Shown here: in pieces, positions 2-17,845 of the stretch
Layout of the letters: each line of letters starts with the position of its first letter
Numbering within the stretch: the stretch's first letter is position 1
Source of the DNA: Candidatus Latescibacterota bacterium
GTDB taxonomy: Bacteria > Latescibacterota > UBA2968 > UBA8231
NCBI GenBank assembly: GCA_965206595.1
Contig: OZ242214.1
Coordinates: 4,736,001 to 4,800,000 of the forward strand
Direction of reading: 5' to 3'
DNA length: 64,000 nt
Program-made: the position numbers and the translations under genes
Notes under the pieces: generated by a model
Told to the model about the DNA's origin: nothing
The model's input: only the letters and a program-made list of their open reading frames with translations
The model's database searches: none

Positions 2-3000
2 GCCGGCCACTGGTTCACACCCCAGGCGCCACTGGACAAGCTGCTTGAGTCCGGAGGGCGAGGAGACGGCAGCGGTGTCCGGCGCATTGACTTCCTCTTC
101 AACCACCCAAGTGGTCAGCCGTTTGCGATAGAGATCGACGGCCCGGAACACGAGGCAGCGGTGGATGTCGACGAGGAGCGTGATGAATCGTTGCGCTCGA
201 TCGGGATTGACGTTCTCCGAGTTACAAACGCGGAAGTGCTGCAAGGTCAGGGAGCCGTGCTCGAACGAATCCGCAGCCGGTGTGCGGGGGCGCTCACGGC
301 ATTCGACCAGGCTGCCGGTGAGGAGATGGCTTCGGCTTCGTTCGCAGTTGATTGCTCCACCGCTGCGAAGGTGCAGTTCGCAGTCGCCCGGGCCCTCGAG
401 TACGGATGGCTGACCGCAGGTGAGAATTGGGAAATCGACATCAGCGGTGCCGGAGCGCCGGTCGCCGCTGGTATTCTGGACGCCCTTCAATTACTTGCAG
501 GAATCGATGGTTTATATGGGGGTTGCTCGGTCCCTGCCAGATGTACGGTTCGTGCGGAGGAGGGGTTTGTAGTCAGGTGGATGCACACCGGAGGCGGCCA
601 GTGGGTGGAGACCACCAATTCCGAAGCGCCGAGTCAACAGCTGCGCATTGGCGTCGAGAACACGGTAGGTCCGTTCCACCGCGTCCCTGGTGAGAGGTGG
701 GACTTCATCATTCGCTCAGCGTGCATCCCGGCACGGATCGCAACTGAGCAAACGTTCGATTCTCGCCGCCGGCCCGTGGCTGCCTCGACCTGGGAGGAAG
801 TTCACCTACCGCTCCGGATGTTTCTCCAGAACATATTCCGCAAGCGCGGATTCCGCCCAAGGCAGGGCGAGGCTGTCTTCAACATGCTGCGACAGAACGA
901 CTGTGTCGTGCTGCTTCAGACCGGAGCTGGGAAGAGCATCATCTATCAACTCGCGGGACTGCTGATGCCTGGGGTGACGCTGGTCGTCGATCCGATCAAC
1001 GCGCTCATCGAAGACCAGGTCGAAGGTCTGAATTCTTATGGAATCGATCGCGCAGTTCCGATCAAGCGCGACCTCGCGACGCGTGAAGAGCGTAACCGCT
1101 TGCTCCGCCTGGTCGCACGCGGCGAGTACCAGTTCGTACTCCATTCACCTGAGCGGCTTCAGTCTCCTCAGTTTCGGGAGGCGCTCGAGGAGCTGAGGTG
1201 GAATTCATTGGTCAACATGGCGGTCATCGATGAAGCGCACTGCGTCTCGGAGTGGGGGCACGATTTTCGGCCCGCATATCTGAACCTCGCGAACAACCTG
1301 CGCCGGCTCTGCGAGGATCCCGAGGGCGCTCCACCACCGCTGCTTGCTCTAACGGGAACCGCCTCGCGTGCGGTCCTCCGGGACATGCTTGCGGATCTCG
1401 GTGTCGACAGGAAACGCTCGGACGCGCTGATTCGCCCCGAGTCTTTTGATCGTTCCGAAATCAGCTTCGAAATCGTGCGCACTTCCCCGAGGGAGAACCC
1501 CCAAGCAGCACTCCGTGGCGTGCTGCATTCCTTGCCGGGGAAATTTGGATTGCCTCGAACAGAGTTCTATCGATCCTCCGGGCGGGACACCGCCTCCGGG
1601 ATTGTATTCGTACCCACGGTCAGATCCCGGATGTACGGCCTGCAGGATACTCGCAACATCGTACGACAGGCGACGGGTTCGGAAGTTACCCTCTACAGTG
1701 GAAGCTCTCCCTGGCGCGGCGACTCGGGGAAATGGGACGTGGAGAAGCGCGACAACGCAGCGGCTTTCAAAACGAACCGCGTGCCCGTCCTCGTCGCGAC
1801 CAAGGCGTTCGGCATGGGCATCGATAAACCGAACATCCGGTACACGGTGCATTTCGGCATGCCGATGTCGCTCGAGAGTTTCTACCAGGAAGCTGGGCGC
1901 GCTGGCCGGGATCAAAAACCTGCCCGGTCGACCGTTGTGTTTTCCGAGTACGACAGGACCCGCTCGGACAAGCTGATCGACCCGGATCTCGCTCTCGAAG
2001 AGCTCCGTGAGCTTTTCACCAAAACAAGCCAGGACCGCAAAACCGCGGACGACGTGACACGGGCCCTCTGGTTCCACCTAGAGGGGTTCAGCGGGGCGGA
2101 CCGAGAGATCGAGGATGCGCGAAAGCTGATCGACGCGATCGGAGATCTGTCCGTCAGTCAACGGATGGAACGACCTTACGGCGACGAGGATCACAAGCGA
2201 GAGCAGGACAGTCGCAAACGCCAGGAGAAGGCCATATACCGTCTACTTAAGCTTGGTGTGATTCGCGACTATGAAGTCGATTTTGGAGCCAATAGATTCG
2301 TTGTCCACGTCGAGACGTTCGACTTCGACCGCTGTAAAGAACGACTGCTTGATTACGTACGGGCCGCCAACCCCGGGAGGAGTCAGTCTTTCGGACGGCG
2401 AGTAAATGAGATCGACGCTGAGGGGCCGCGTGACGCCGCGCTGGGGCTGGTCAAGGTGTTGATCGAGTTTACGTACGACGAAATCGAACGTTCCCGCCGC
2501 CGGTCGATTCAGGAGGCCGTTCTGCTGGCTCGTCAAGCTGGGAATGACGCGGAAATCCGCAGACGTCTGCTCGACTATCTTCAGGAGGGTCTTGGTGCCG
2601 AGTGCATCGAGGAACTGCTGGAGCGAGAAACGGTCGAGTTGTTCGAATGGTGGGATCTCGTCACCAAAATGCAGACTGAGATGGATGCGGGAGAGCTGCG
2701 TGGGCTGTGCATCCGCGCGCTAGAATCCTATCCGGATCACCCGGGGCTTCTTCTGACGCGCTCTTTGGCCGAATCCATGTGCTCCGATCACGATGAGATG
2801 GTCAGTTCGAGGGGGATCGGAACGGCGATTCGCACTGGAGTTGAGAAGTACGAGATCTCGGGAACAGACATCGAGTCGACCATTGACGAGATGTTCGAAT
2901 TCGCGTCAACTCGTGCGCGTGACCTCGGACCGCCCCTTACCACTGCGCTGTTCGATCTTGCCGATGAGCAGGCGGACTTTGCATTCGTCGAGAGCAGGGT

Positions 3001-3154
3001 TTCCAAACGTGCGGTCGAACTCGATGACCCTCGCGTGCGCGCTGTGATTGCGACGCGAAGGGTTCGAAACGTCGTCGATCAGTTGAAAGAGGTGGCTGAC
3101 CGAGTGGTTGCCCAATATGATGCACCGGGCGTAGTGGAGGCCTTAAGAGCATAA
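2..3154 (+). CDS. RecQ-family ATP-dependent DNA helicase with N-terminal DUF559/Vsr-like endonuclease domain (5' end outside window)
   Basis: Frame is open from base 2: RRIDFLF..FAIEIDGPEH..DEERDESLRSIGIDVLRVTNAEV is DUF559-like. RecQ motifs QTGAGKS, VIDEAHCVSEWGHDFRPAY, LTGTA, ATKAFGMGIDK and YQEAGRAGRD follow, then a long helical C-terminus with no obvious HRDC domain. Confidence 0.88.
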   Translation, partial: AGHWFTPQAPLDKLLESGGRGDGSGVRRIDFLFNHPSGQPFAIEIDGPEHEAAVDVDEERDESLRSIGIDVLRVTNAEVLQGQGAVLERIRSRCAGALTAFDQAAGEEMASASFAVDCSTAAKVQFAVARALEYGWLTAGENWEIDISGAGAPVAAGILDALQLLAGIDGLYGGCSVPARCTVRAEEGFVVRWMHTGGGQWVETTNSEAPSQQLRIGVENTVGPFHRVPGERWDFIIRSACIPARIATEQTFDSRRRPVAASTWEEVHLPLRMFLQNIFRKRGFRPRQGEAVFNMLRQNDCVVLLQTGAGKSIIYQLAGLLMPGVTLVVDPINALIEDQVEGLNSYGIDRAVPIKRDLATREERNRLLRLVARGEYQFVLHSPERLQSPQFREALEELRWNSLVNMAVIDEAHCVSEWGHDFRPAYLNLANNLRRLCEDPEGAPPPLLALTGTASRAVLRDMLADLGVDRKRSDALIRPESFDRSEISFEIVRTSPRENPQAALRGVLHSLPGKFGLPRTEFYRSSGRDTASGIVFVPTVRSRMYGLQDTRNIVRQATGSEVTLYSGSSPWRGDSGKWDVEKRDNAAAFKTNRVPVLVATKAFGMGIDKPNIRYTVHFGMPMSLESFYQEAGRAGRDQKPARSTVVFSEYDRTRSDKLIDPDLALEELRELFTKTSQDRKTADDVTRALWFHLEGFSGADREIEDARKLIDAIGDLSVSQRMERPYGDEDHKREQDSRKRQEKAIYRLLKLGVIRDYEVDFGANRFVVHVETFDFDRCKERLLDYVRAANPGRSQSFGRRVNEIDAEGPRDAALGLVKVLIEFTYDEIERSRRRSIQEAVLLARQAGNDAEIRRRLLDYLQEGLGAECIEELLERETVELFEWWDLVTKMQTEMDAGELRGLCIRALESYPDHPGLLLTRSLAESMCSDHDEMVSSRGIGTAIRTGVEKYEISGTDIESTIDEMFEFASTRARDLGPPLTTALFDLADEQADFAFVESRVSKRAVELDDPRVRAVIATRRVRNVVDQLKEVADRVVAQYDAPGVVEALRA

Positions 3155-3654: not shown

Positions 3655-3987
3655 GAGGCCGCCCTCCAACGCAAGGAGCAAAGGAACCGTAAGGCGAAGA
3701 CGGTCGACGGGGAAGCGGAGGCCCGTCTCGTAGCTCTGGGCAGTAGCCCGCCGCCGGAGGGGAGGAAGTGCTGGACCCTCAGATTGTTAGTAGAGCGCCT
3801 CCTCACATTGCAGGATACCCTGCGCCAGCAACAGCGCAACGTCCTCGACTATCTCAGGATGGCCTGCACCGCCGCCGTGCGTCAACAACCAGCGCCCTCG
3901 CTGCTGCCTTCAACCCATTCCGCCATTCGCTAATATCAGCCCGCGACCATTCCGTCCCCGGCCCCATCAGCAGGGAACTGAACGGTT
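3655..3987 (+). mobile_element. Chimeric IS scar: IS630-type transposase HTH fragment fused to the 3' end of the local IS66
   Basis: Translates as ..KTVDGEAEARLVALGSSPPPEGRKCWTLRLL (IS630-like), then VERLLTLQDTLRQQQRNVLDYLRMAC..PSTHSAIR* (matches the IS66 transposase C-terminus in this window). Ends with the IR GGGAACTGAACGGTT, missing the final AC. Confidence 0.8.
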
Positions 3988-4670
3988 GGTGTACCTTCAG
4001 ACTCTATCTATTGACTCCCATCGATATTTCCAGGAGAAACCCACGATGACCGACGACTACAGTGAGGCGCGTGAGCACGAGTATGCTGTCATCCGCCGCC
4101 GCGATCTCCTGGACTGCCTCGAAAAGCACACAATGCCTCGGCGGGAGAGCGATGTTCTTGACGGATTTCTGCGACGCCTGCGTAGTACCGAGGACGATGT
4201 GCAGAGTTGGAAATCAACCGAACCAAAGGAATGGTTATGGAATGCCTGGAAGGGCTTCTACATGGAACTGCAGAGACAGCCATCGCTGAAAGGGTGGTGG
4301 GGATATGTACCAAATCAGAGGGGTGGATTTCTCTCTTTCCGGCCGGAGTTCGAGACAACTGTCGGCGGGGTGAAACTGTATATCCACATCGAGAACGCAA
4401 AAAAGCTGTGCTTCCGAATTGAAATCGTTTCAAACAACGTCAACCGGAAGACGTTGAGATCATTGGTATGACTCCATTATCGGTCGATGCAACCAGGTGG
4501 GAATTCCGGCAAGAAAACCCGCCCGCTTCGGGTCCGGCTTGAACATGACCATCGCAGAAGTTGAGCAGGATGACTGGCTCGTAGTCCGGGACGGCCGTGT
4601 GGATGTTGCCATGACAGTGGCACGACTCCAGGAGTGTCTTGGGGTCGTCAGGGCCTTCCCGGCTGGGTAG
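3988..4670 (+). pseudogene. PD-(D/E)XK nuclease-family gene remnant, 5'-truncated and frameshifted
   Basis: VYLQT..WKGFYMELQ..WWGYVPNQRGGFLSF. After a frameshift near 4457 it continues DHWYDSII..KPARFGSGLNMTIAEV to TAG at 4668-4670. Family assigned from recalled motif similarity. Confidence 0.55.
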
Positions 4671-4863
4671 CTTCCTCCCACGAGGATTGGATTGCATCCA
4701 TTCCCTCCCCTGCGAGGGACCGAGGGCATCCGTCATCCGGAGGATGGTCCCTGGGGCCTGCTGCCCCAGGCCGTTGAAATGCAGGGCTGACCAGTGATAA
4801 CGGCGAAGAATCCAGCCCCCTAACCGGCCTCGGAAATAGAACCCCACCCGTAAAAAGTCCTGC

Positions 4864-4898
4864 CTGCGACGCGATCTGTCGCAGCTGTAGGCCATAAT
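4864..4898 (+). promoter_or_regulatory. Palindrome CTGCGAC-N7-GTCGCAG plus -10 (CATAAT) upstream of the DnaB paralogue; candidate WYL-regulator site
   Basis: Perfect 7-bp arms at 4864-4870 and 4878-4884; TGTCGC-N10-CATAAT spacing. Confidence 0.6.
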
Positions 4899-4930
4899 CC
4901 TGGGATACATCCAATGACCCAGGATTCCAA

Positions 4931-6271
4931 ATGGCCGGCAATCAGCACATTCCGCCCCAGGCGATAGAAATAGAGCAGGCCGTATTGGGGGCGATGATGC
5001 TAGACCCTGGCGCCATCGACCGCGCCAGCGCAACCCTCGATCCGGACTGTTTTTTCCACGTCCCGCACAAATGGATTTACGCCGCAATAATCGACCTCCA
5101 CGAGCGCGGGGTGGCGATCGATCAGCTCACCTTGTCCGAGGAGCTCAAGCTCCGCGATCAGTTCCATGAGGCTGGCGGATCCGTCTACCTGGCCAGGCTG
5201 GCCATCGAGTTCGCCTCCGCGGCAAACATTGACGACCACGCGCGGATCATCCTCGACAAGGCACTCAGGCGCAAGGTGATCGAAACTGCCGGCGACATCA
5301 TCGAGCAGGCCAACGAAGGCAGCAGGGAGTTGGATGTTCTGCTTGAAAGCGCCGCGCAAGGTCTTGACAGGATCCGCCAAAACCAAATCGTCGATGGGCT
5401 TGAGCCGCTTGCTTCGCAAATCGGCGACGCCGTAAAACAGATTGAGCAATCCTGCAGCAGGGTAGGCTCCCTCTCCGGGATCGGGACGGGGTTCATCGAC
5501 CTCGATGATATAACCTGCGGCTTACAAAAAGGAGACCTTATCCTGCTTGCGGCTGCCCCGGGCGCCGGCAAAACGTCTCTGGCCTTTGCCCTGGCGCGCA
5601 ACGCCGCGGTAGAAACGGGGGTCGGGGTTGCAATCTTCAGCCCGAGAACTTCCAGAATGGAGCTGGCCCGGCGACTGCTCAGCGCGGAGGCGCAGGTGGA
5701 TCTGCACAAGCTTTGCAGCGGCCGGCTCCGCGACGACCAATTGGTTCACCTGAGGAGCGCCGCAGAACGTCTGGCCGGAATACCTGTCTATATAGACGAT
5801 ACCCCCCGAATTTCAATAACCGAAATCCGGACCAAGGCGCGCCGGTTGCATCGGGAGCACGGGATCGGCCTGATTTTCGTTAACTCTCTGGAAATGATGG
5901 GTCGACAGACGAAGGCCTACACCTGCAAGCAGGAAATCTCCCGGGGCCTCAAGGGCCTTGCCCAGGAGCTGAACGTACCAGTACTCGCCCTGTCGGAACT
6001 GGAATGCACCCAGGAAAGGCCGAGGTTGGAAGACTTGTGGGAGTCGGGAAATCTCGATCAGGAAGCCGACATGGTGATGTTCATCTACCACCCGGATATG
6101 CACGGCATCGAAGACCACGAAGACACCAGCTTCGAAGGCACTGCCGAAATCATCATCGCCAAACAGCGCAACGGCCCGCTTGGCTCGGTGAAGCTGCAAT
6201 GGAACGCCGAGAGCGCGACTTTCAGGAATTTGGCGCCGGAGTGGCGGACTGAGACCGAGGAAGAATATTAA
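4931..6271 (+). CDS. DnaB-like helicase paralogue with degenerate catalytic motifs (probable pseudo-enzyme)
   Basis: Full DnaB architecture (PPQAIEIEQAVLG N-domain, GIGTGFIDLD, APGAGKT, IIIAKQRNGP). However FSLEM is FSPRT, DYLQ is NSLE, LSQLxR is LSELEC and DLRESG is DLWESG. Confidence 0.9.
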   Translation: MAGNQHIPPQAIEIEQAVLGAMMLDPGAIDRASATLDPDCFFHVPHKWIYAAIIDLHERGVAIDQLTLSEELKLRDQFHEAGGSVYLARLAIEFASAANIDDHARIILDKALRRKVIETAGDIIEQANEGSRELDVLLESAAQGLDRIRQNQIVDGLEPLASQIGDAVKQIEQSCSRVGSLSGIGTGFIDLDDITCGLQKGDLILLAAAPGAGKTSLAFALARNAAVETGVGVAIFSPRTSRMELARRLLSAEAQVDLHKLCSGRLRDDQLVHLRSAAERLAGIPVYIDDTPRISITEIRTKARRLHREHGIGLIFVNSLEMMGRQTKAYTCKQEISRGLKGLAQELNVPVLALSELECTQERPRLEDLWESGNLDQEADMVMFIYHPDMHGIEDHEDTSFEGTAEIIIAKQRNGPLGSVKLQWNAESATFRNLAPEWRTETEEEY

Positions 6272-6427
6272 CTTCAGTCCGGCCGACACCGGCGAAGCCG
6301 CTGGCTTGGTGCTTTCAGGATACCTTTCCCACATAGCTCGCTTCCTCCCCTTGGCCTGACCCTCCCGTAGTCCGGGAACTTCGGGGCGAATGCCTCCCTG
6401 CATAACCCCCCCAAAAGTCGCCCACCC

Positions 6428-6444
6428 GCGACATGATCCGTCGC
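6428..6444 (+). promoter_or_regulatory. Second GCGAC-N7-GTCGC palindrome, upstream of the winged-helix ORF
   Basis: GCGAC ATGATCC GTCGC; same core and spacing as the site at 4864-4884. Confidence 0.5.
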
Positions 6445-6509
6445 ACCCCCTGGAAAACAGGTTCGCTTTTTGCTGTACGAGAGCGAACCCATTCTCCCGG
6501 AGGAACGAC

Positions 6510-7271
6510 ATGCCTACCCAAAGAACCCGCGACCCGCGCACCCTCGACGACCACGGTCTTATTGGGGGCGGGACAATGACGGCGGCCGAGCAACCCCTTC
6601 TCCGGGTTCAGGGCTACAAGTCCAACCCCGAGTTTCTGGACGCGATGTTGAAAGAGGCAATTCTGCAGCTGGAGTGCGGCGGGCTGCGGCGCCTCGTGCG
6701 CCAGCGGAGCCGGCGGCGCTGGTGCGCCGGCCTGTGGATCGACCCGGAGGGGGCCATCCCGACGGGAAAGCTGCGGCAGCGGCTCGATATCTCGGAGCGT
6801 GAGTCGCTGCGCCTCGGAGGGGTTTCCGAGGCTCGACTGGAGGCGAGCGATCCGCAGGTGGTCCCGTTCCTCGACCTCGTCAGGCGTTGCCGCCTGACCC
6901 CCTTCGACCGGCAGGTGCTCTTGCTGCTGTTCTTCAGGGCGGTGTCGCCTGAGTTCCTTGACCACTACAAAGAGCTGGAATACGAACAGTTTGAACCGGG
7001 AACCCGGGGCCAAGGGGGTGGGCAGGAGGTGCGCATCCGCAGCCTGCTGGAGATACTCTGTTCGAGCAGAACCGGTGTGACCATACAGGCAATTAGCCGG
7101 TTCAGGGCCGACGCCCCCCTGATGGACTGCCACCTGCTGCGCATGGGCAGCGTCAACGAGCAGCGACCCTCGGTTCTCGACGTCGAGGTGCATCTACGCC
7201 GGCGGGTCCTGCCCTGGATCGGCGGGGAAACCCTCAGCTTCCCGGGGGACGATCCTTGTCCAGAGGAATAA
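6510..7271 (+). CDS. Hypothetical protein resembling the winged-helix N-terminal region of AAA+ ATPases, with no ATPase domain
   Basis: ATG at 6510 follows GGAGGA (alternative start 6576). Motifs RLTPFDRQVLLLLF, FRADAPLMDCHLL and VHLRRRVLPWIGG; no Walker A. Confidence 0.6.
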   Translation: MPTQRTRDPRTLDDHGLIGGGTMTAAEQPLLRVQGYKSNPEFLDAMLKEAILQLECGGLRRLVRQRSRRRWCAGLWIDPEGAIPTGKLRQRLDISERESLRLGGVSEARLEASDPQVVPFLDLVRRCRLTPFDRQVLLLLFFRAVSPEFLDHYKELEYEQFEPGTRGQGGGQEVRIRSLLEILCSSRTGVTIQAISRFRADAPLMDCHLLRMGSVNEQRPSVLDVEVHLRRRVLPWIGGETLSFPGDDPCPEE

Positions 7272-9354
7272 CCGGCTCGAGGACTCAGGTTACGAGGCGG
7301 CTGACAAACGAATCGATTTCGTAAGCGGAGGGGATTCTGGGATAGGGGGACATCGCGGCCGCCGGTCCCGAGTACCTTCGGGTCCTGCAGATGGCCGAGA
7401 ATCTCCGCTTTTCGTCGAACCACTGCGAAATCCCCCGGGGTGAGGTTGGTCAGGGTTTCGACTTCAGCCGGAGCCTCGGACTCGAAGTAGTTACGAAACC
7501 CCGCCATGGACTGACTTGGGGTGAGATAGTCCAGGGCGATCTTGAAAGTGAATCGCCGCAGGGTTGCCGGGTCTAGGGTTTCCCCGAAGTTGGTTGTACA
7601 CGCAAACGGCAGGGGATGGCTCTCCATCCAGGTCAGCATTTCGTTGACCTGGCTGACCTCCCAGGAGCGCACGGCGCCGCGGCGGTCGGCGAGCAGGGAG
7701 TCGGCCTCGTCGAAGACGAGGATGGAGCCTTCGGCGCGCGCCTCTGCGAAGGCGTCGGCAATAAGCCGTTCGGTTTGGCCGACCCACATAGACATCAGGT
7801 CGGAGGCCCGCTTCTGGGTTACCTGAAGGCCGAGGCGCTCGGCCAGATAGCGGACGAAGGCGCTCTTTCCGGTGCCGGGCGGACCTTGCAGACAGAGGGA
7901 GAAATGCTTTCCCCCGGTCTTTTCCAAGCGTTCCGTGAATCCCACCGGGTCGACGTCTGCCCGGATCAGGGCGGGATCGAATCTCTCCGGTGCCCCCTGC
8001 TGCATCGGCTTCTCTCCTGAAATCACCCGGGACAGGTTTTGCACGCCAAGGCGTACTGCAGCGAGGTCTTCACCACAAAGGCTCGCCGCGGCGATGGCCC
8101 CGGAAGCAACCCCGGGGGCCACGTCGAACTCCTTTGCAAGGGATTGGCCATCTTCCTCCGTCGCTTCGATGCCGTGGCGCGCCAGCTCCCGGCTCCATAT
8201 TCGTGCCCGGGTCCGGCGCGTGGGCCGGCGCAGCTCCAAGGCGCACGTCATACGGCGCAGGACGGTGGGACAGGTCTCCCTGGCGGAGTTCGATGTCCAG
8301 AGCGTCGGCACCGGTGTGCGTTCGAGCAGCCGGTTGAGAAACACCTTGGAGCCGCCGGAGCGGAGCGGGGAAAAGCCGTGTGAAGAGAAGGGTATCCAGC
8401 CAGAACCCGGGTCCGAGAGCAGGTCCTCCATCTCGTCGAAGAGCAGCATCGACCCGCCGCCCGGAGCCAGCAAATTCTGGGCGACCTGAAGCTCCTGGAG
8501 CCGTTCCCCCCGACGGGGTTCGTCGCCGCTATCGTCCGCTTCGCCCACACTGTAGAGGTTCGCCTGCAGCCGGGCGGCCAGGGTCTTGCAGAACTCCGTC
8601 TTTCCGGTGCCCGGCGGTCCATACACCAGGATGTTAACCCCCTTGGCGCGGGAACTCAGGGCGCCCTTGAGCACCTTTTCGATATGGTCGCGCTGTTCCG
8701 CGACATGGTCGAAGTCTTCCCACTCCAGCTCCCCCGGGGGCGCCGTATCGAGCAGCGGGCGGCGCATGTCGAGTTCGCCCTCGTCCGTGACGGTGACCAG
8801 CCGGTTCAGCCGCTTGACGATTTCGATGTCCCCGTCGTCGTCTATGGACACCAACCCGGACCTAAGGAGAGGAGCATCGGTCGCCAATCGGGCGCGGAGA
8901 ACACCGCCCGACACGCCGAGGACCCGGGGAAGCAAGGGGTTCGTAACATTGAATAAACTGGGTCGGATATGGCGAGAGGTGGTGAATTCGAAAACAGACT
9001 CGATCAGCGATTCGAAAATCGGCTGGGTGCGACTCCACATCAGGATTTCAAGGATGGCGACATCATCCGAAGCGAAGTCCATCGCCTTTCCGAGCTGCCT
9101 CAGCCGCTTCGCCGTGAGGTCTTCCCAGGCACCCTCGCCGGAAGACAACGTCGAGGACCTGTCCTCAAGGGTCTTCAGGAGACCCTGCCAATCCTTCTTT
9201 GAAAGGTCTTTCCCGAGGTACTTCCCCGCCCGGCGCTCGTACTGTTCCAACTCTTCCGATTCATCATTTTCGCATTCCAGGCCCAGCACCTTCCGGTTTT
9301 CGGCGACCCACACGGCCAGGTCCCTTGCTTCCGGACTGGCGCGGTGAATTCGCG
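6965..9354 (-). pseudogene. Double-domain AAA+ ATPase, 5' end cut by IS66, natural 3' end apparently lost near 7370
   Basis: Two GPPGTGK Walker A motifs and Walker B motifs LLFDEMED and LVFDEADS. The predicted start lies inside IS66, and the tail after ..HLQDPKVL reads antisense through the neighbouring gene. Confidence 0.8.
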
Positions 9355-10975
9355 GTAACCGTTCAGTTCCCCTGGCAGGTTGGGGGCGGGGGCGGAATGG
9401 TAGCAGAATATTAGCGAATGGCGGAGTGGGTTGAAGGCAGCAGCGAGGGCGCCGGCTGCTGAGACACGGCCGCGTCACAGGCCATCCTGAGATAGTCGAG
9501 GACGTTGCGCTGCTGCTGGCGCAGGGTATCGCGTACCGTGAGCAGGCGCTCTACGAAACGGCTGCCTTCGGCACTGTGGGTACCGAAGCTGGTGTGACGC
9601 CACAACACGCCATGGCGAAGGGCTCGTTCGGCTTCGTTGTTGGTCGGCTCGACGCCGGGCCGGCGTGCGCAGGTCCACAGGGCCGGCCCGAGGTCGAGGA
9701 GATTGGCGCAGGTGGCCGCCGTCTTGGCGTCGGCGAACTGCTGCCCATAGCACAAATGAAAACGAAAGCGCAGACACAAATCGTCGATATAGTCCTGGAA
9801 GCGGGCGCGGGACAGGGTACCGTCGCGGACTTGATGCCACCAGGTAAACAGCTGCTCGCTGCGGTCCAACAGGTGTTGACCGACGCGCCCGGCCTCTCCG
9901 CCCCGGGCCACGAACTCCTCGAAGGCGCGCCGCAGATGAGCCCAGCACACGTGCCGGCGTCGTAGCGGCAGATGCGCGTAGGCCGAATAGCGATCGGAGC
10001 CGACCACCGCCCGGTTGTCCGCACCCAGCACCTCATCGACCCCGTCCCGTCCCCGGCTTGGGCGAATGGCGAACACGGTGACGCCGGCCGTCACCGCGGT
10101 CCACAACCAGGCCTTGGCGCGGCGCTGGCGCCAGCCGGTCTCGTCGACGTTGACGAGGCCCTGTCGGCGAACGAAGGCGCGCGCCTCCTCGACCGCACCC
10201 GCCAGGGCCCGCGGCCACTTCCCGTTCCAGTCGGCTGACCGTACCCAGCGACACCTCGAGGCCGAAGGCGTCGGACAACAACGCCCGGATGTTGCGCTTG
10301 CTCAGCCGGTAGGCCCCGGCCAGCAGGCCGACCCAGGCTTGCACGCTGGGACCGAAGGTGTGGCGCGACACGCCCTCGGGCCAACCGGCTGCGGTCAGGC
10401 GGTCGCAGTGACCGCAGCGCAGGGTGTGCAACTGATACTCGATGACCTCGGCCCGCAGCGGCGGGATGACGACTTCCTGGTGACGCTGCGGATGAGGATC
10501 GTCTCCCGTCAACGGGTGCCCGCATCCGTGGCACGTACTCGGCTTGACCGGGATCCGTTCGTCCACCTGCTCCACCGATACCCACGAGCGGCCGTGTCCT
10601 TCGTGCCCGGGCTGTCCGCCCGGCGAGCGCCCCGAGGATCGGCGTCGGGAGGTGTCGGTGCGCGGCGAGGAGGAAGCGCCCGATTGCGACGAGGCGGCCC
10701 GGGCACCGCGGCGGGAGCGCCCCTTGCGGCGGGCCAATTCCCGCTCCAGCTCCCCGATGCGCGCCGTCTGTTGTTCCACGATCTGCTCAAGCTGGACAAT
10801 GCGCTGGCGCAGGTCGCCTTCGGAAATCGTACTCTCAGGAGGTCTCTTCATGGGGTCGCCGTATCCAGGGAAATCTGCAACACACAACCGATCCCGAAGA
10901 TACCGACGAACCCGAAAACCCGCTTAGGTATTTCTTTATATGCTCAAACTACTGCAGGGGGGACTGAACGGTTAC
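9355..10975 (-). mobile_element. IS66-family element (single-ORF type), copy 1, transposase frameshifted
   Basis: Terminal IRs GTAACCGTTCAG..CTGAACGGTTAC. Transposase is split (10033-10887 and 9411-10106) with motifs NVDETGW, CWAHLRR and EPTNNEAERALR. Flanks AATTCGCG and CTTTTCGG do not match. Confidence 0.93.
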
Positions 10976-11017
10976 CTTTTCGGAAAGCTCCAGCTCTAAT
11001 TTTTGCCGCTTGGTCAT
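10976..11017 (-). pseudogene. 5' stub of the next phage gene (MTKRQKLELELSEK), possibly the major capsid protein, cut by IS66
   Basis: ATGA overlap with the HNH stop and GGAGA RBS upstream; open frame until the IS66 IR. The capsid call is inferred from position and a helical N-terminus only. Confidence 0.4.
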
Positions 11018-11331
11018 CGGTCTTCTCCGGTTGTGTTGGTGCATGTAGGTGAGGGGGTTTCGCTATGACTGGAGAGCCGCTCAACGAACCTTAACCACTC
11101 CAGCCGCGCGGGGGATAGCTTTGCCGTTTTCTCCGCTGCGAAATGACAGCGCCGGCAAAGCGTTCTCAGATTGCGCAAATCGTAGGGCGCGCCGCCAGTG
11201 CGCGGGGGGTCCGTATGGTGTACTTCCAGCCGCCAGCGGGCGCCGCATTCTGTACATTTTTCCCCGTCCCGCTGTAGGACTTTGGAGCGGGTTAGCTCCC
11301 ATTGCTTGCCCTTCAAACTGTGCTTACTCAT
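11014..11331 (-). CDS. Phage-type HNH endonuclease (terminase-associated)
   Basis: WELTRSKVLQRDGEKCTECG..LEVHH..GGAPYDLRNLRTLCRRCH; start overlaps the reconstructed TerL stop. Confidence 0.88.
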   Translation of the reverse strand: MSKHSLKGKQWELTRSKVLQRDGEKCTECGARWRLEVHHTDPPRTGGAPYDLRNLRTLCRRCHFAAEKTAKLSPARLEWLRFVERLSSHSETPSPTCTNTTGEDR

Positions 11332-11343
11332 ACCAGTGCACTA

Positions 11344-12510
11344 GTGTCATGTCGTGTAATTAACTGTACAAACAATTGAAAGTGCCGTAGGTTTCCCTTA
11401 TCCCCCTTCTGAAAGGAGAGACCTATGGTGACGGGGCGTCCATTAACGCCGTTAGAGCTGAGTCCGTCGGACCGGGAACGACTGGAATCGATGGCCAAAT
11501 CACGAAGTCTTCCCCACGGATTGGTGCGGCGAGCCGAGATGGTGCTGCTGGCCGCCGATGGCTGGCCCAATGAAGCGGTCGCTTCCGCGGTGGGTGTGAC
11601 GCGAGCTACGGTGGGCAAATGGCGCCGGCGTTTTCTCGACAACGGACTCAATGGCTTGTATGATGAACTACGTTCAGGGGCGCCGCGATCGATCACGGAC
11701 GAGCAGGTAGCCGAGGTGGTATACAAGACCCTGAAGACCAAGCCCAAAGACGAAACACAGTGGTCGGTGCGCTCCATGGGCGAAGAAACCGGCCTGACCA
11801 AGGACGCGGTTCATCGCATTTGGCGCACGTATGGTTTGCAGCCCCATCGACACAAGCGCTTCAAGCTTTCCACCGATCCTTTCTTTGTCGACAAAGTACG
11901 GGATATCGTCGGCTTGTACCTGAATCCCCCCGAGCACGCCCTGGTGCTGTGCGTGGACGAGAAGAGCCAGATCCAGGCGTTGGAACGAAGTCAGCCCATG
12001 CTGCCCCTGGGACTGGGATACGTGGAAGGGATTACGCACGACTACAAGCGGCACGGCACCACCACCCTGTTTGCCGCCCTGGACATCGCCACCGGGGAAG
12101 TGATGACCCAGTGCAAGCCCCGTCATCGTCACCAGGAGTTCCTCCAGTTCCTGCGCCACATCGAGGCCAACGTGCCCGCTGACCTCGATATTCATCTCGT
12201 CGTCGACAACTACGCCACGCATAAGCATGCCAAGGTCAAGCGATGGCTGGCACGGCGTCCCCGATTTCACCTTCACTACACTCCCACGTATGCTTCGTGG
12301 CTCAATCAGGTGGAGATCTGGTTCAATATCCTCACCCGCCAGGCGGTTCGGCGCGATTCGTTCCGCAAGGTGTCGGAGCTCATCGAGCGAATCGAACGCT
12401 ACACGGCCAAATGGAACGCCAACGCACACCCTTTCGTCTGGACGGCTACGGCGGATTCCATCCTCGCCAAAATCAAGAGACTTTGTGAACGAATCTCTGC
12501 GACAGGACAC
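11344..12510 (+). mobile_element. IS630-family insertion sequence, intact
   Basis: IRs GTGTCATGTCG / CGACAGGACAC, each flanked by a duplicated TA within CTAG; inserted in the last codons of terL. Confidence 0.93.
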
Positions 12511-12513
12511 TAG
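11425..12513 (+). CDS. IS630 transposase
   Basis: HTH N-terminus; DDE motifs [22 protein letters not shown] and [10 protein letters not shown]. Confidence 0.95.
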
Positions 12514-13851
12514 CTCGACTTCGACGGGGAGCGGGAGCGGGTAGGGTCTCGCCTAGGCCAGCGGCAATAGTCGCGGCTGCAAGGGCGTCTATCCTGCCGC
12601 TGTTGTTTTGTTTGCATAATGCGGGGTTTCCGCCGGGGTCACGGCGGATCTTGCTATCCTTTACGGCGCTGGCCAGTAGCCGGGCGCCAGTAGCGAGGGA
12701 CAAGCCGCCCGCGATCGCCAGCCGTTCAAAACTTCGCACGTCGGCGCTACCGTCAGCCGTCTTACTGGCACCGGTCCCCCGCCATACCGGGCGCCAGCGG
12801 AGGCCCGCGTCTTTTATCGCCTGCTCCGCTTCTTTCTGCCGGTAGCGGTCGGCTCCAACCTCCGCCACGTCGACCCCGTGCAGCTCGCGGGAAACCCGCT
12901 TAAAAAACTGGGGTATGTCTGAAACGAGGTCGCCACATTGCCACAACTCGCCTTGTGCGTGAAGGACCGTATAGAGCGGTCCTACGCCGTCGCTTTTCCC
13001 CCGGTCCGCCAGCGGGGGAAAAGCCGGGACAGCCGCGTATACCTCAAGGCGCCCGGTAGCTGGCCATAGAGCCGCCGCCGCCGTCATCGCGCGGCTCCCG
13101 CCAAGGTCCAACCCCACCACGCAGCGGCCACGGCGCGGGGCAACCTCGCGCGCCATGCACCGTTGCATCTCGACAGCGGAGATTATAGGATCGGTCCCGG
13201 CTCCTATCGGTGCGTTAAGCTCCAAACGTCGAAAATCCGCTTCGTCGCCGGGGGTTTGTGCGGCTGAAGCTGCGAGCTTGCGGAGCTTTTTCAGGCTCTT
13301 AACCCCGTACGAAACTGCGGGGTTTGCGGCTAGCAACGCCGCCTCGTCATCGAGACTGCAATCGACGGGCGCCGCATGTACGGATACCTCCCCCCGCTCG
13401 ATCATCTCGGCGAACATTGGCCCGATATCTCTTATTGAAATGGCTAGCAATTTTCCATCTTTTGCCGTCGTACTTGTGCGGAAACTGTTATAGAGCGGGC
13501 GCTTTCTTTCAGGTAGTTGTCCCGCCTCATCGAGAATCGCTAGATCGGAACCAACGGCGTGACCGGAGGATTTTTCAGAGTTCCAGAATGTCGCCCTTGC
13601 GTCAAAATCCTTCGCCTCGATCCAACCGGGATAAGGCGCTTTCCGCTCGCTTATGGGCAACCCGCTAGCCTCCGCGATTGCTACAATTTGCTGTTTCAGT
13701 TCGACGGATAGCTGGCCAGTCAACGAAACCGCATTTGCCCGCCAGCCCGGGCGCCGTAGCGGTCCGCAAAGGTGCGCTAGTATCAAGGCCGCAACCGTCG
13801 CGGTTTTCCCGTTCTTTCTCCCGGTACTTAAGGCTGATTCGCTTGTTTCAG

Positions 13852-16572
13852 CCCTTGTTATTCATGGAATTTCAGTAAAAGGAGCTGTACTGGGGTGCCT
13901 CCCATGCTTAGGTTTCAGAGGGAAACACAAGGCAGTATCACCCTTTGACCCAACCACACAGGAGGACACCCAATGGGTGAATTACCGTCCCCCACCCCGT
14001 CCCCGCAAGCCGGGCCGATTCAGCCGTCTTTCAACCGCTCCATTCACATTGAAGCTCGCCCCACTCACCTCAGCGGCGACCCCGGTTCGCTGGTGTTGCG
14101 GCAACTGCTCGAACACAGCCAGGTCCTGGATTGGGTGGATGCCCACTTCGAGGATCGCCGTAGCCCGGACCAGATCACGCACCCGCTGTCGGAACTTTTG
14201 CGCACGCAGATCGTGCTGATGGCGCAGGGCTTGCCCCACGCCGACGACGCCGACGCCGACGCGCTGCGGCAGGATCCGATCCTGCGTCTGGCGGTCAGCG
14301 ATCGCAAAGGGCAGTCGCCGTTGCGCCCAGCCGACGAAGGCCGGCCGCAGGGACTGGCCAGTCAGCCGACGCTGTCGCTGATCGGGCAAGCCTCCAGCGC
14401 CTACAACCGCGCGCTGTTGGAGGAAGCGGTGCTGCGCAGCGCCTGGTCCCGGTGCCAGTTGCTGGAACGACGGCTGCGCTACGAGGAGTTGGCCGTCGAC
14501 ATGGATGCCTTGCCGATGCCGGTGCACGGACACCCGCAGGGGGTGGAGTACAACGGCTACTTCCACGCCTCGGGGTTCCATCCTCTGATCATCGGCTCGG
14601 CGCAGACGGGCGACTTCTTCGGCGCCGTGTTGCGGCCGGGCAACGTGCACGCGCATGAGGGCGCCGAAGCGGCTATCCTGGAGCGCCTGGACTGGATTCT
14701 AATCGCACTTGGCCGGCCGCGTCCTCCTGCGCTTCGACGCGGCCTCGGTGAGCGGGCCCTTCCTGAGCCGGCTGGAAGCGCGGGACAACACCTGAACCTA
14801 TCTCAAAATAGGCAAACTTAAACTTGTTTTCGAAATGACAGTGATGTACCATTGGTGTATGGTCAATCTGACCGACATGCAATGGCAACGAATCCGGCAT
14901 CACTTTCCTGAAGAACTTCGTCCCAAGAGCCATCCGGGGTCGCAAACCGGTTTGCACCCGCGATGTTTTTGAAGCCGTTCTTTGGATTCTAAACACCGGG
15001 GCTCAATGGCCTATGTTGCCGCAGTGCTATCCGAACTACAAAACCGTGCATCGCCGTTTTCAAAACGGGTGTCGTCAAGGGGTTTTACGCGAAGTTCTCA
15101 TGGACCTGGCCCAGACCCTTCACGAGCAAGGGGGCCTGGACGAATCGGAGGCTTTCATCGATGGCATGTTCTCGGCGGCCAAGGGGGGAGGTGCCGATAT
15201 CGGCCACACCAAGCGAGGTAAGGGGGTGCGGGTCATGGGGATCGTGGACGGCAATGGGCTTCCCTTGTCGGTGAGCACGCATGCAGCGAACCATCATGAA
15301 GTGACGCTGGTTCAGTTGACCTTTGACTTTTACCTGATCGAAGACCAACCTGACAACTTGATCGGCGATAAAGCGTACGACAGCGATTCGTTGGATGAAG
15401 AGCTTAAGAAAGACGGGATCGAGATGATCGCCCCGCATCGCCAGAATCGGACCAAGAAAAAAACTCAGGACGGACGGCGATTGCGGCGTTATGTGCGGCG
15501 TTGGATGGTTGAGAGATTCTTTGCTTGGCTTCAATGGCAGCGTCGAGTGATCACTCGCTGGGAATTGTATCCGGAGAATTTTCTTGGCTTCGTCCAACTT
15601 GCATCCATTTTGATTTTACTTAAACAATTTCAATTTTGAGATAGGTTCCTCGTACGGGTCGCGCATCAAGAAGAATGCGCGCCTGGAGGACGTGGCTCGT
15701 CCCTGGGTGGAAGCCTATCAGCAGGAGCTGGCGCAGCACCCGGAGCGGTTGCGCGAAGAGGGTTTTCGCTGTCGCGAGCTGCGCTATCAAGCCAAGTCCT
15801 GGGCGCAGCCCCGACGGGTGGTATTGGTATGGGTCCCCTCCGAGACGGAGGAGTTGCCCATCGCCCGCCACTTTTTCCTGATCACCGACCAAAGTCCCCA
15901 GACGATGGGCGCCCGCGACGTGGTCGCCTTCTACCGTCAGCGCGGCCTCTTCGAGCGCATGCTCGGAGAGCTGAGCTCCACCCTTCAGCCCCAGCTCTCC
16001 TCGACCACCCGTCGCAAACAGCACTACCGCGGTCGTCCACCGGGTCAGCGCACCCCGTCCCGGGATGCCTTCGCCGCCAACCAGGCGATCCTGACCCTGA
16101 ACCTGCTGGCCTACAACCTGCTGCACCTGGGCCGCCAGGCCGCCGAACGCGCCGAGGCCCGACGCGGGCGGCCCCGCACATACGGACGCTCGACGACGGC
16201 CCTGAGCCTGGACAGCTTTCGACGGCGCTACCTGCGCCTGCCGTCCCGCGTCACCTTGCACGGACGCAGGGTGGGCGTCATCCTGACCCAAGGGATGGCG
16301 GCTCCCTGGGACCGTCTGTGGAGATTTCTGGCCACGCTCAGACCCGTGGATATGGGGATGGCGTAACCCCGGGCCGGGTCGGTTGGGGTAATCGGCTCGC
16401 AAGCGAAGTGTCTCCACGGAGGCGCGTACAATTTCAACAAGGTCGGTAGAGATAGGGGGACGGCTCTACCCAAAAAGGCAACTATAGAAGGGAGGCAGGC
16501 CTTGGAGGCTATGCAGTGGGGTCTCGGAAGCGCCTATACCCGCTTAGGCGCTGGTTGTATGAATAACAAGGG
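13852..16572 (+). mobile_element. IS1380-family element, copy 1, degraded and interrupted by IS5
   Basis: IRs CCCTTGTTATTCAT / ATGAATAACAAGGG with 5-bp target duplication TTCAG (13847-13851 and 16573-16577). Transposase pieces 13973-14793 and about 15649-16366 match copy 2. Confidence 0.93.
14794..15648 (+). mobile_element. IS5-family element, 855 bp, copy A
   Basis: IRs GAACCTATCTCAAAAT / ATTTTGAGATAGGTTC with CT duplication. Transposase motifs LTDMQW, GRKP, FIDG, IGDKAYDSD and RWMVERFFAWL span 14859-15639, with a frameshift near 14936. Confidence 0.93.
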
Positions 16573-16751
16573 TTCAGGGTCCAAAGCCACGGACAACCAA
16601 TCCTGCACAAAAGGGAGAATCCGGAGCGGCTCGCCGGCCAACGGATGCCCCTGCGGTACGACAAGGGTCTTTTCCGCCCAATCCGTAAGCGTAGCCGCTC
16701 GCTCCGCTCCGCTGGCGGTTGCCGGCAAGGGGAATCCCCCGGGGTACCGCG

Positions 16752-16786
16752 GGCGCTGTACGGCGCTGTACGGCGCTGTACGGCGC
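16752..16786. repeat. 10-bp tandem repeat (CGGCGCTGTA, about 3.5 units) in the 5' end of terL
   Basis: gggcgctgta cggcgctgta cggcgctgta cggcgc seen directly. Confidence 0.9.
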
Positions 16787-16972
16787 GCCTGCGCCGTTGA
16801 GACTCCCGGCAACACTTCCGCCGCTTCTCAGGGTCCTTGTACGGCACTTAGGAAAGCCTCTCAGAGAAACGTGACACCCTCCAGCCGGTGCCGCTGCAAG
16901 GGGTTCGGCCGGGGGGGACAGGGGTCCCCGGGCGGGGGGCAGGGGGCAGGGGGTAGGGTCTGGGGGCGATCA

Positions 16973-17810: not shown

Positions 17811-17845
17811 TCGGCGGGGGTCCGGGAGTTCGGGGGGATCAAAGG

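Follow-up and report, generated by a model that had tools for sequence, protein, structure and literature searches.

Genes and broken elements around a two-gene block

The window, by which we mean the whole 64,000-nucleotide stretch that was analysed, carries on its plus strand a gene for a 446-aa DnaB-derived protein, referred to here as the pseudo-helicase (4931..6271), followed by a stand-alone winged-helix gene (6576..7271). The pseudo-helicase frame, open from 4898 when read from stop to stop, runs from an ATG at 4931 to a stop codon at 6269-6271 with no internal stops; the initial annotation rightly described a full-length, intact DnaB ORF of 446 aa, and its start at 4864 lies 67 nt upstream of the ATG. 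It had also described the neighbouring genes as broken, and this is borne out. At the left edge, a plus-strand gene that runs past the window start (2..3154; >1050 aa) combines DUF559 (Vsr-like) with a RecQ/DpdF/PsyrT-like SF2 helicase, as assigned by Pfam and PADLOC (DpdF 276.7 bits, PsyrT 209 bits). It is followed by a solo IS66-type end (3787..3987), found when the window was compared by blastn with the genome it comes from, and by a 161-aa plus-strand fragment of a PDDEXK_4 nuclease gene (3986..4471), recognised by clustering with the proteins of loci L034 and L040. The full PDDEXK_4 gene in relatives' islands encodes 350-367 aa, and PF14281 and PADLOC PDC-S26 are assigned on a full-length relative.

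To the right, a minus-strand pseudogene fragment (7369..9352) derives from a Cdc48/VCP-like double-AAA ATPase (two Pfam AAA domains; Cdc48/VCP matches in the PDB). It covers residues ~20-674 of a 693-aa relative, having lost its 5′ end to an IS66 copy and ending on the 3′ side at the junction with the two-gene block. An intact copy is present in the same genome (G000:C1:2236863-2238953), and the fragment is 86.7% identical in nucleotides to G000:C1:2236922-2238902. A minus-strand ORF of 837 aa at 6965-9478 was rejected as a real gene, being a read-through of this truncated fragment into IS66 and the antisense of the winged-helix gene. The IS66-family element itself (9353..10980, minus; Pfam DDE_Tnp_IS66 and zf-IS66) has a transposase frame split in two and ~16 further copies in the genome; the solo IS66-type end is inverted with respect to it, and the two flank a 5.4-kb segment that contains the pseudo-helicase. 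Beyond lie the degraded remains of a prophage or integrative element into which IS copies have inserted (11014..19778; Pfam, IS copy numbers), holding an HNH gene, IS630, a TerL nuclease remnant, a tail terminator, an IS1380-like element interrupted by IS5, and a tyrosine integrase (18618-19778, minus). No tRNA marking an attachment site was found in 1-30000.

The pseudo-helicase and winged-helix genes form a plus-strand block (4834..7370) that is 92.8% identical by blastn over 2539 nt to G103, the genome of a sister species in the same genus, in which the flanks differ and the segment following the block matches 6.5 kb away. Near-identical copies of the block, with 5 differences, occur in contigs from two other sequencing studies. 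The two genes are thus found together in the window genome and in G103. Two metagenome pairs of winged-helix and pseudo-helicase sequences were also seen on contigs of equal size (71889; 170238). The connection with the winged-helix gene downstream that the initial annotation suggested is supported as conserved synteny only, by the shared block between differing flanks and a dN/dS of 0.32 for the winged-helix gene, which indicates purifying selection. A complex prediction for the two proteins, at a score of 0.01, speaks neither for nor against binding. Scanning 4400-7500 for sigma-70 promoters and terminators gave nothing above shuffled sequences, and no RNA run carrying the sequence was listed among 24 runs.

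The winged-helix protein of 231 aa is read from Met 6576. Starts at 6510, the choice of the initial annotation, or at 6390 would make it longer, but 6576 is more likely since a natural variant has frame-breaking indels at 6407-6529 and most relatives start at the corresponding position; the same variant has an in-frame 15-nt deletion within the gene. The protein contains the PF22977 WHD domain (E 1.5e-13) and lacks the AAA domain PF00004, and so is not itself a WHD-AAA protein. Its counterpart is the domain that opens a 742-aa WHD-AAA (Cdc48-like) protein, to whose N-terminus in genome G102 it is 60% identical, and it stops at the domain linker; full-length WHD-AAA proteins are present in G102, G167 and G159. 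Short forms fall into 14 clusters at 80-100% identity; their lengths are 154-266 aa, with ten in the range 226-266 aa. Ten of the 14 were aligned, and these finish within a few residues of ...SFPGDDPCPEE. AlphaFold2 modelled the protein as a helical hairpin and a MarR-like winged helix (pLDDT 81.5), an earlier model from 12 sequences (pLDDT 41.5) having been unusable. With the better model, Foldseek returned no match at E <= 0.001 and VIA-align only generic MarR/SarS/TubR winged-helix matches (Z <= 6.0), while hhalign detected no similarity between the WHD profile and the N-terminus of the double-AAA protein (probability 2%). We found no description of PF22977 in the literature accessible without subscription, and PHROGs gave no match for the WHD, fam10 or fam6 proteins.

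Lost motifs, relatives and origin of the pseudo-helicase

The pseudo-helicase has both domains of the DnaB family, the N-terminal domain and the RecA-like DnaB_C domain, each at full length (PF00772, residues 8-108, E 1.4e-28; PF03796, residues 183-433, E 1.8e-73). It scores 402 bits against TIGR00665, slightly above the cut-off of 385, and matches Geobacillus DnaB 2vye with an E value of 4e-91. Residues were mapped by alignment to Geobacillus DnaB (2vye/2r6a) and to the canonical DnaB of the same genome, and both alignments contain every motif substitution listed in the initial annotation. The catalytic Glu (Geobacillus E241) is replaced by Arg239 (FSLEMS to FSPRTS), the Walker B Asp (D320) by Asn318 (IDYLQL to VNSLEM), and the H3 residues Q362 and R365 by Glu357 and Cys359 (LSQLSR to LSELEC); five residues are deleted from the loop after H3, and the Arg of the ssDNA loop (R381-E382-S-G384) has become Trp370 (DLRESG to DLWESG). 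The retentions proposed alongside these losses are equally evident: in addition to the full-length N-terminal domain, Walker A (GAGKTS, with Lys214 in GKT) and the trans-acting Lys/Arg finger (K418/R420 in Geobacillus; Lys411/Arg413 in KQRNGP) are kept. DnaB is among the most conserved bacterial enzymes, and the catalytic and DNA-loop positions were invariant in all 201 control DnaBs, comprising 117 canonical relatives, 80 viral DnaB relatives and 4 extra DnaB copies from another family of the phylum.

The substitutions are not private to the window. The catalytic Glu is absent from 62 of the 179 DnaB-family cluster representatives retrieved; these 62 span 54-97% identity, and the Glu is replaced in them by Lys (49), Arg (11) or Gln (2); the remaining 117 are fully canonical. 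The ssDNA-loop Arg is lost in 60 of these 62, the P-loop Lys is retained in all of them and the Lys-Arg finger in 59, and the Walker B position is Asp in 55 and Asn in 7, all of the latter belonging to the window's close group. Within the family, a subclade from genus g12 keeps the Walker B Asp and the H3 Gln, and the loop deletion, in the copies examined, amounts to 1-2 residues in that subclade and 5 in the window's. Homologues sharing the motif losses were one of the checks set for the original proposal, and they exist also at the genome level, as 12 intact copies distributed over 11 of the 76 family genomes. All genomic copies found fall within one Gemmatimonadota family of soil-type bacteria, and the gene is absent from the other 65 genomes, including G104 of the same genus. 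Truncated or broken copies in G141 and G102 indicate that the gene is dispensable and turns over. Stops that seemed to lie inside second copies proved to be the natural stop codons of the genes. JGI metagenome contigs scanned with the pseudo-helicase yielded no relative and thus no further neighbourhoods for the window's subclade, and no account of a Glu-less or dead DnaB paralogue was found in the literature open to non-subscribers. The family is at present annotated merely as "replicative DNA helicase", which is misleading.

A canonical dnaB, whose presence elsewhere was a further check on the proposal, lies in the same genome at G000:C1:1596596-1597903 (547 bits), and the pseudo-helicase is not the replicative helicase of the cell. 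It is ~52-53% identical to the resident DnaB overall and only 29% identical in the linker helix region, which docks neighbouring subunits, and its GC3 is 0.73 vs 0.88 for the resident gene; the paralogues of genus g12 are 63-71% identical to their resident DnaB. In the tree, the Glu-less copies placed there and one copy with intact motifs form a single clade (support 97/93), which is sister to the host DnaB of genus g12 (100/96) and far from the window genome's own DnaB. Phage DnaBs, canonical in 80 of 80 cases, are no more than 43% identical to the pseudo-helicase. The phylogeny thus shows that the clade arose from a host dnaB in a different genus within this bacterial family and has moved horizontally.

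Selection on the paralogues

Comparison of the pseudo-helicase with its orthologue in G103 gave a dN/dS of 0.29 (27 synonymous and 28 non-synonymous codon changes), and the pooled value for paralogues of the sister subclade was 0.28, vs 0.15 for host copies; both are far below 1, and all comparable paralogue pairs fall between 0.2 and 0.42. Constraint on the paralogues is about twofold looser than on host dnaB, and this relaxation is uneven. P-loop windows show host-level values (0.14-0.16), whereas the DNA-loop windows reach 0.33-0.39 in paralogues vs 0.02 in host copies; by domain, the paralogues show 0.28 in the N-terminal collar and 0.25 in the C-terminal domain. They retain 179 of 257 near-invariant DnaB columns, and 25 columns are systematically changed, among them ATP-hydrolysis and DNA-loop motif positions. 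No 30-codon window exceeded a dN/dS of 0.52, so this crude test gives no signal of diversifying selection or an arms race. In a divergent natural variant, several indels are listed in the flanking non-coding DNA and none within the pseudo-helicase ORF.

The initial annotation took the gene for a pseudo-enzyme kept by selection and not for a duplicate in decay, and the three tests set in advance, namely a canonical dnaB elsewhere, homologues with the same losses and a dN/dS well under 1, all came out in its favour. We conclude that the pseudo-helicase, one of a clade of at least 62 such paralogues, is very probably maintained by selection.

Possible roles and relation to known systems

The clade has shed residues precisely at catalytic and DNA-loop sites while its P-loop, arginine finger and most of its surface stay under selection, and in this respect it resembles a natural separation-of-function mutant whose job would be carried out purely through the protein-protein interactions of DnaB. 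From its motifs, the pseudo-helicase would be expected to fold, to bind nucleotide and DnaB partners, and probably to oligomerise, but it could not hydrolyse ATP or translocate on DNA. If so, it acts by binding rather than by unwinding, and we consider partner binding its probable mode of action.

DnaB is a target of phage proteins, lambda P being one. Another, Ped1 of phage PaoP5, binds the host DnaB hexamer and is neutralised by extra DnaB (PMC13728149). That DnaB is attacked by phages and that surplus DnaB can neutralise an attacker provides the logic for a decoy or sponge: a non-replicating DnaB mimic may intercept or titrate phage loaders, inhibitors and other proteins directed against the replicative helicase, or, in a less likely variant, interfere with replisomes. 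In the window's subclade the mimic would be paired with the truncated winged-helix protein. This role is suggested by context and by the single published precedent of Ped1; we know of no DnaB-targeting protein of the Ped1 or lambda P type in phages of Gemmatimonadota, and none was identified in the present analysis. The paralogue islands are variable and carry a WYL regulator, PDDEXK_4 (PDC-S26), DUF4143 (PDC-S01), AbiEi/Eii, ParE/Phd, HigB, a type III R-M system, a TIR protein and IS elements, a setting of defence, toxin-antitoxin and mobile genes that fits a role in conflict. The WYL/PDDEXK/double-AAA cassette also occurs without the paralogue, however, and L035, L039 and L041 have the paralogue but no double-AAA gene, so that residence in the same islands may reflect hotspot linkage only. 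Apart from fam10 and the winged-helix gene, no gene was constantly linked to the paralogue at the loci compared, and no model in PADLOC-DB 2.0 (2023) matched the pseudo-helicase beyond a weak P-loop match (mad8, 29.7 bits, residues 186-249). At ~53% identity to the resident DnaB, close mimicry or the formation of mixed hexamers is weakened for the window's copy. Our best overall explanation, a selected pseudo-helicase with a replication-linked conflict role in variable defence islands, is a serious candidate that we hold with somewhat less than even confidence, and a conflict or defence role as such stands at about the same level. A decoy or sponge function specifically is a more tentative suggestion. 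The two mechanisms offered in the initial annotation, poisoned mixed hexamers and bait for phage loaders, are plausible candidates. About as tentative as the decoy function is its fullest form, in which the clade as a whole would be a replisome decoy, an inert, ATP-locked copy of the helicase that baits phage hijackers or inhibitors of DnaB and either soaks them up or signals infection through the winged-helix partner or neighbouring effectors.

It is also conceivable, if unlikely, that the protein is a dominant-negative poison of the abortive-infection type, in which the dead subunit, once induced, assembles together with the DnaB of the host or caps the partners of that DnaB, bringing every fork to a standstill and halting phage and host replication together. 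The retained Lys/Arg finger, P-loop and most of the conserved columns that bear interfaces are what such a subunit would need, the g12 copies are 63-71% identical to their resident DnaB, and a WYL-type regulator and abortive-infection and toxin-antitoxin genes share the islands. The window's copy, with 53% identity to the host protein and 29% in the linker helix region, is a poor fit to this scheme; nor is a cognate antitoxin or tight regulator constantly adjacent, and the paralogue of genus g12 is coupled in translation to an outer-membrane-like gene, not to a regulator. We regard as similarly unlikely an accessory housekeeping factor of the replisome, an inert ATP-binding ring or subunit that would regulate how the helicase is loaded, whether primase or loader is available, or how forks restart. 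Purifying selection on both the collar and the C-terminal domain, with host-like constraint on the P-loop, would suit such a factor, and dead replication paralogues with a function are known, as the reported PriA pseudohelicase of D. radiodurans illustrates (PMC4504706). The patchy distribution (11 of 76 genomes, with the same-genus G104 lacking the gene), horizontal movement, lower GC3 and location among IS and defence genes argue instead for an accessory island gene and not a core one.

A less probable reading is that the pseudo-helicase serves the Cdc48/VCP-like AAA unfoldases encoded nearby, WHD-AAA and double-AAA, as an adaptor, a regulator or a mimic of their substrates; an ancestral set of DnaB paralogue, ClpP-like peptidase and WHD-AAA would have been reduced here to a dead helicase and a WHD recognition domain. 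Such a set is seen in G102, where the clade member with intact motifs is followed by a ClpP-like gene and the 742-aa WHD-AAA gene whose N-domain the window's WHD protein resembles. The pairing of WHD and pseudo-helicase in the window genome, in G103 and in the two metagenome pairs points the same way, as does a double-AAA gene within 10 kb of the paralogue at most loci. Against this, 24 of 76 genomes carry the double-AAA gene, frequently with no paralogue present; it is fragmented in the window and split in G103 while the pseudo-helicase is intact. The ClpP-like gene is a conserved neighbour on the chromosome in other places as well. That the pseudo-helicase gene is a relic without function, a dnaB that was duplicated or transferred and is decaying in an island riddled with IS elements, intact by chance alone, is largely refuted: broken surroundings, truncated copies and looser constraint would suit decay, but the frame is intact in 12 genomic copies and 62 clusters, dN/dS is low in every comparable pair, the divergent variant has its listed indels outside the ORF, and the losses include known hydrolysis and DNA-loop positions rather than being scattered at random. 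Least credible of all is an active helicase with alternative catalytic residues, since against the retained P-loop and Arg finger, and the Walker B Asp and H3 Gln of the g12 subclade, stand a water-activating Glu replaced in 62 of 62 members, an ssDNA-contacting Arg lost in 60, a shortened loop, and, in the window's copy, a missing Walker B Asp, at positions that vary in none of the 201 controls.

If the selected pseudo-helicase does serve in defence, as decoy or as replisome poison, the replicative helicase would join the host hubs that are guarded against phages, and the protein would offer a tractable bait for finding phage anti-DnaB proteins. If its role is regulatory, bacteria that use neither DnaC nor DnaI would be shown to have a further, new level of helicase control.

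Among known systems, replicative DnaB (TIGR00665; 2R6A/2VYE) shares the PF00772 and PF03796 architecture, the P-loop and the Lys/Arg finger with the pseudo-helicase; the latter differs in its replaced catalytic Glu, Walker B Asp, H3 Gln and Arg and loop Arg, in its shortened loop, and in being a second, island-borne copy of patchy distribution with constraint relaxed exactly over the DNA-binding loops. Like the DnaBs of mobile elements, it is a DnaB homologue in a variable or integrative island near an integrase and phage remnants, but its source is a host dnaB from within the same bacterial family and not a phage DnaB, and it falls far below the cut-offs of both phage_DnaB TIGR03600 (315.6 vs 498.65) and the SPI-7-type island DnaB NF040583 (307.2 vs 655). 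Parallels in kind are the D. radiodurans PriA pseudohelicase, a catalytically dead replication paralogue (PMC4504706), and ImuB, a dead Y-family polymerase (PMC6511836), which reportedly lost catalytic motifs, preserved their fold and the surfaces that bind partners, and were retained by selection. Both are single genes of the core or of an SOS module with a known set of partners, whereas the pseudo-helicase is duplicated, horizontally moving and island-borne, and coexists with an active DnaB. Ped1 and lambda P are attackers and not homologues of the pseudo-helicase. Were the proposed decoy to prove correct, a core replication enzyme would have supplied bacteria with a counterpart of the integrated decoys in plant immune receptors.

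Motif losses in the pseudo-helicase and its relatives

The pseudo-helicase, a DnaB homologue of 446 uninterrupted codons (4931-6271, plus strand), retains complete DnaB N-terminal and RecA-like DnaB_C domains and aligns at 52% identity with the canonical DnaB encoded elsewhere in the genome. It narrowly exceeds the TIGR00665 DnaB cut-off (402 versus 385 bits) and falls below the cut-offs of every lineage-specific equivalog model and of the phage-type and SPI-7-island-type DnaB models. In DnaB, using Geobacillus numbering, E241 is the water-activating glutamate, D320 is the Walker B aspartate, and R381 contacts ssDNA. With residues of the two proteins numbered from their mutual alignment, these positions correspond to Arg239, Asn318 and Trp370 of the pseudo-helicase, the H3 residues Q362 and R365 to Glu357 and Cys359, and the loop that follows H3 is five residues shorter; P-loop Lys214 and the Lys/Arg finger of the KQRNGP motif are unchanged. 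The initial annotation, which proposed a catalytically dead DnaB paralogue from sequence alone, listed these substitutions and retentions correctly in every detail, since all were found in alignments both to Geobacillus DnaB and to the genome's own canonical DnaB.

Two homologue searches, taking the best 120 matches of each, yielded 179 distinct DnaB-family proteins, including the window's own two. Among these listed matches, 62 lack the catalytic Glu and carry Lys (49), Arg (11) or Gln (2) instead; the P-loop Lys is kept in 62/62 and the Lys-Arg finger in 59/62, and the loop Arg is lost in 60/62. The other 117 have the canonical residue at each of the eight positions scored. When second dnaB copies were cut out across 168 genomes of the phylum, intact Glu-less genes numbered 12 in 11 genomes, all within the window's taxonomic family (76 genomes). 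In addition, G141 has one truncated Glu-less remnant, and G102 has two further copies, of which one is intact with all motifs canonical and the other is a broken canonical fragment. The substituted positions are invariant in controls, namely 80 of 80 DnaB relatives on viral contigs and all four additional DnaB genes from a different family of the phylum. Degeneration is deepest among the relatives closest to the window's copy (91-97% identity, with two more at 71% and 62%): they add the loop deletion as well as Asp-to-Asn and Gln-to-Glu changes. The larger subclade, from g12, another genus of the family, has kept Walker B and the H3 Gln. Source annotations name clade members "replicative DNA helicase".

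Two further architectures were observed. Seven protein clusters of 708-729 aa (P0148, P0158, P0164, P0170, P0172, P0173 and P0175; also L038 9410-11593 in G128) carry a PhzF-like domain (PF02567) fused to the C-terminal end of a Glu-less DnaB, and the presence of this fusion in a complete genome shows that it is no assembly artefact. The host dnaB of several relatives carries an intein-like insertion after about residue 376-394 (for example G102:C2:3883815-3885578 and P0023-P0049, 594-670 aa, with PF14890 annotated on the clusters).

Selection and origin

The pseudo-helicase is under purifying selection and is accessory, mobile and island-borne. Nei-Gojobori dN/dS against its orthologue in G103, a sister species of the same genus, is 0.29 (27 synonymous and 28 non-synonymous codon differences), and all pairs inside the g12 subclade fall at 0.20-0.42; pooled values are 0.28 for the paralogues (45 pairs) versus 0.15 (36 pairs) for the host dnaB genes found alongside them. 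Constraint extends to both paralogue domains (N-terminal 0.28, C-terminal 0.25). In 30-codon windows the P-loop region (196-240) gives 0.14-0.16 in paralogues versus 0.14 in hosts, and the H3/H4 DNA-loop region (346-390) gives 0.33-0.39 versus 0.02; no paralogue window exceeds 0.52, and none signals diversifying selection. Canonical DnaBs conserve 257 columns at 95% or more; the Glu-less clade preserves 179 of these, and 25 are systematically changed, including 209, 238-239, 355, 359, the loop, 370-374, 378 and 394. A divergent natural variant in public contigs has several indels in flanking non-coding DNA and none listed inside the ORF. Residues for hydrolysis and the DNA loop have been lost, with the P-loop, the finger and most conserved columns kept and constrained. 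Taken together, P-loop constraint, DNA-loop relaxation and the conserved columns are characteristic of a protein that no longer hydrolyses ATP or translocates on DNA yet is still required for a task involving its nucleotide pocket and remaining fold.

A maximum-likelihood tree of 66 rows (support given as ultrafast bootstrap/SH-aLRT) united all 20 included Glu-less sequences and the intact-motif G102 copy in a single clade (97/93), whose sister is the g12 host DnaB (100/96); those of the window's genome and two congeners lie elsewhere. GC3 is 0.73 for the pseudo-helicase, 0.88 for the resident dnaB and 0.69-0.79 for g12 genes. From tree position and GC3, the pseudo-helicase is therefore a duplicate of a host dnaB from in or near genus g12, acquired horizontally by the window's genus. 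The stem of the window subclade is long (0.47), and because the G102 copy joins it weakly (89/67), the tree is compatible with a single loss and with two parallel losses, although a neighbouring Leu-to-Pro change is common to both dead subclades. The nearly equal dS of the window and G103 orthologues (0.11) and of the host dnaB of the same two species (0.15) is consistent with arrival before these species split.

The winged-helix gene and the island setting

The locus is an IS-ridden remnant of an integrative element. Its features include a PDDEXK_4 fragment (3986-4471), a solo IS66 end (3787-3987) whose orientation is opposite to that of an IS66 copy (9353-10980), and a double-AAA fragment (7369-9352, minus strand), followed downstream by HNH, IS630, a TerL remnant, an IS1380-like element split by IS5, a tail terminator and a tyrosine integrase. 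Collinearity with G103 is confined to 4834-7370, the part holding the pseudo-helicase and the winged-helix gene (92.8% over 2539 nt); in G103 the next matching segment lies 6.5 kb away. Genome-wide, IS66-, IS630-, IS1380-like and IS5-family elements (window part 9353-16580) each have dozens of copies, many 94-100% identical. At the window's start, a large DUF559 (Vsr-like) and RecQ/DpdF/PsyrT-like helicase gene (2-3154; PADLOC DpdF 276.7 bits, PsyrT 209 bits) and the next ORF, of 140 aa (3155-3577; no family in Pfam, PADLOC or PHROGs), are possibly a separate defence or toxin gene pair.

The downstream gene encodes only a PF22977 winged-helix domain, which elsewhere stands at the N-terminus of larger Cdc48/VCP-like WHD-AAA proteins (583-798 aa). 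Such short forms make up 14 clusters (80-100% identity), and the 10 aligned end within a few residues of one point in the domain linker. The gene has a dN/dS of 0.32 against G103. Its start is more likely at 6576 than at 6510 or 6390, judging from the natural variant, where frame-breaking indels lie upstream of 6576 and a 15-nt deletion within the gene is in frame. A second winged-helix-only copy (G000:C1:3944504-3945324, in the window's own genome; 82.5% nucleotide identity) is broken by a stop or frameshift. The AF2 model (pLDDT 81.5, good) predicts a MarR-like winged helix preceded by a long helical hairpin, and its structural neighbours are all generic. Next to the intact-motif DnaB paralogue of G102, on its downstream side, come a ClpP-like gene and then a WHD-AAA gene of full length, so the pairing of a clade member with the winged-helix lineage is old. 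The metagenomic cluster pairs P0007/P0185 and P0013/P0192, with equally long longest contigs within each pair, suggest the same linkage. Directly upstream of the G102 paralogue lies a dense defence stretch (L044 755-9122) with an N6/N4 methylase, an AAA_15/AAA_21 ATPase, a CAP12/Pycsar-type TIR protein and a ResIII helicase.

In g12 the paralogue occupies one chromosomal hotspot flanked by peptidase C26 and radical-SAM/SPASM genes, whose counterparts in the window's genome lie 1.4-6.6 kb upstream of the window start. Only one neighbour there is tight, a protein of 212 aa that has a signal peptide and weakly resembles outer-membrane barrels (e.g. L035 8710-9348; L034-L039); it is 90-95% conserved, more so than the dead DnaB. 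Its gene, which ends 3-10 nt before the paralogue start codon or overlaps it by 4 nt (6 loci), is coupled in translation to that of the dead DnaB. In G102 only a 5' remnant of this gene is left, ahead of the intact-motif copy, and the window's genome lacks it. The remaining gene set shifts between loci: a WYL-WCX regulator, a ~190-aa protein, PDDEXK_4 (PADLOC PDC-S26), a collagen-repeat lipoprotein and a Cdc48-like double-AAA ATPase, and further ParE/Phd, HigB/HTH, AbiEi/AbiEii, ADP-ribosylglycohydrolase and DUF4143 (PDC-S01) genes. Since the WYL/PDDEXK/double-AAA cassette is also found without the paralogue, including at a second locus of the window's genome, and the double-AAA gene is missing beside the paralogue at three g12 loci, we treat the cassette genes as island co-residents rather than as established partners. 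The first five genes, from the WYL regulator through the PDDEXK_4 nuclease to the Cdc48/VCP-like double-AAA ATPase, recur on one strand with or without a dead DnaB (L061, G000:C1:2229000-2246000; L062 in G107; L038; L037), and are a candidate defence system in their own right; within the family, 24 of 76 genomes carry the double-AAA gene.

Possible functions and comparison with known systems

The pseudo-helicase may bind nucleotide without turnover and act through DnaB's interaction surfaces. We tentatively rank a conflict function first. In a published case, Ped1, a phage protein, attaches to hexameric DnaB and is neutralised when DnaB is in surplus (PMC13728149). A DnaB copy unable to load or unwind would be a cost-free sponge or bait. 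Against this stand the lack of a PADLOC defence-family match, of an obligate effector among the loci compared, and of a diversifying-selection signal in 30-codon windows, an identity of only 53% to the resident DnaB in the window's genome, and the existence of truncated paralogue copies. A dominant-negative poison of the abortive-infection type is unlikely, and we hold an accessory regulator of helicase loading to be just as improbable. An adaptor or substrate mimic for Cdc48-like unfoldases is the most doubtful of these alternatives.

In full-text literature searches, neither a DnaB paralogue without the Glu nor the winged-helix family of the downstream gene was found described. The pseudo-helicase is of interest as a conserved, mechanistically suggestive and directly testable protein. 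Homology makes it a DnaB, but its catalytic features set it apart from replicative helicases, since four of the defining features tested are lacking. In its mode of working it may be likened to other dead replication paralogues that survive as binding modules.
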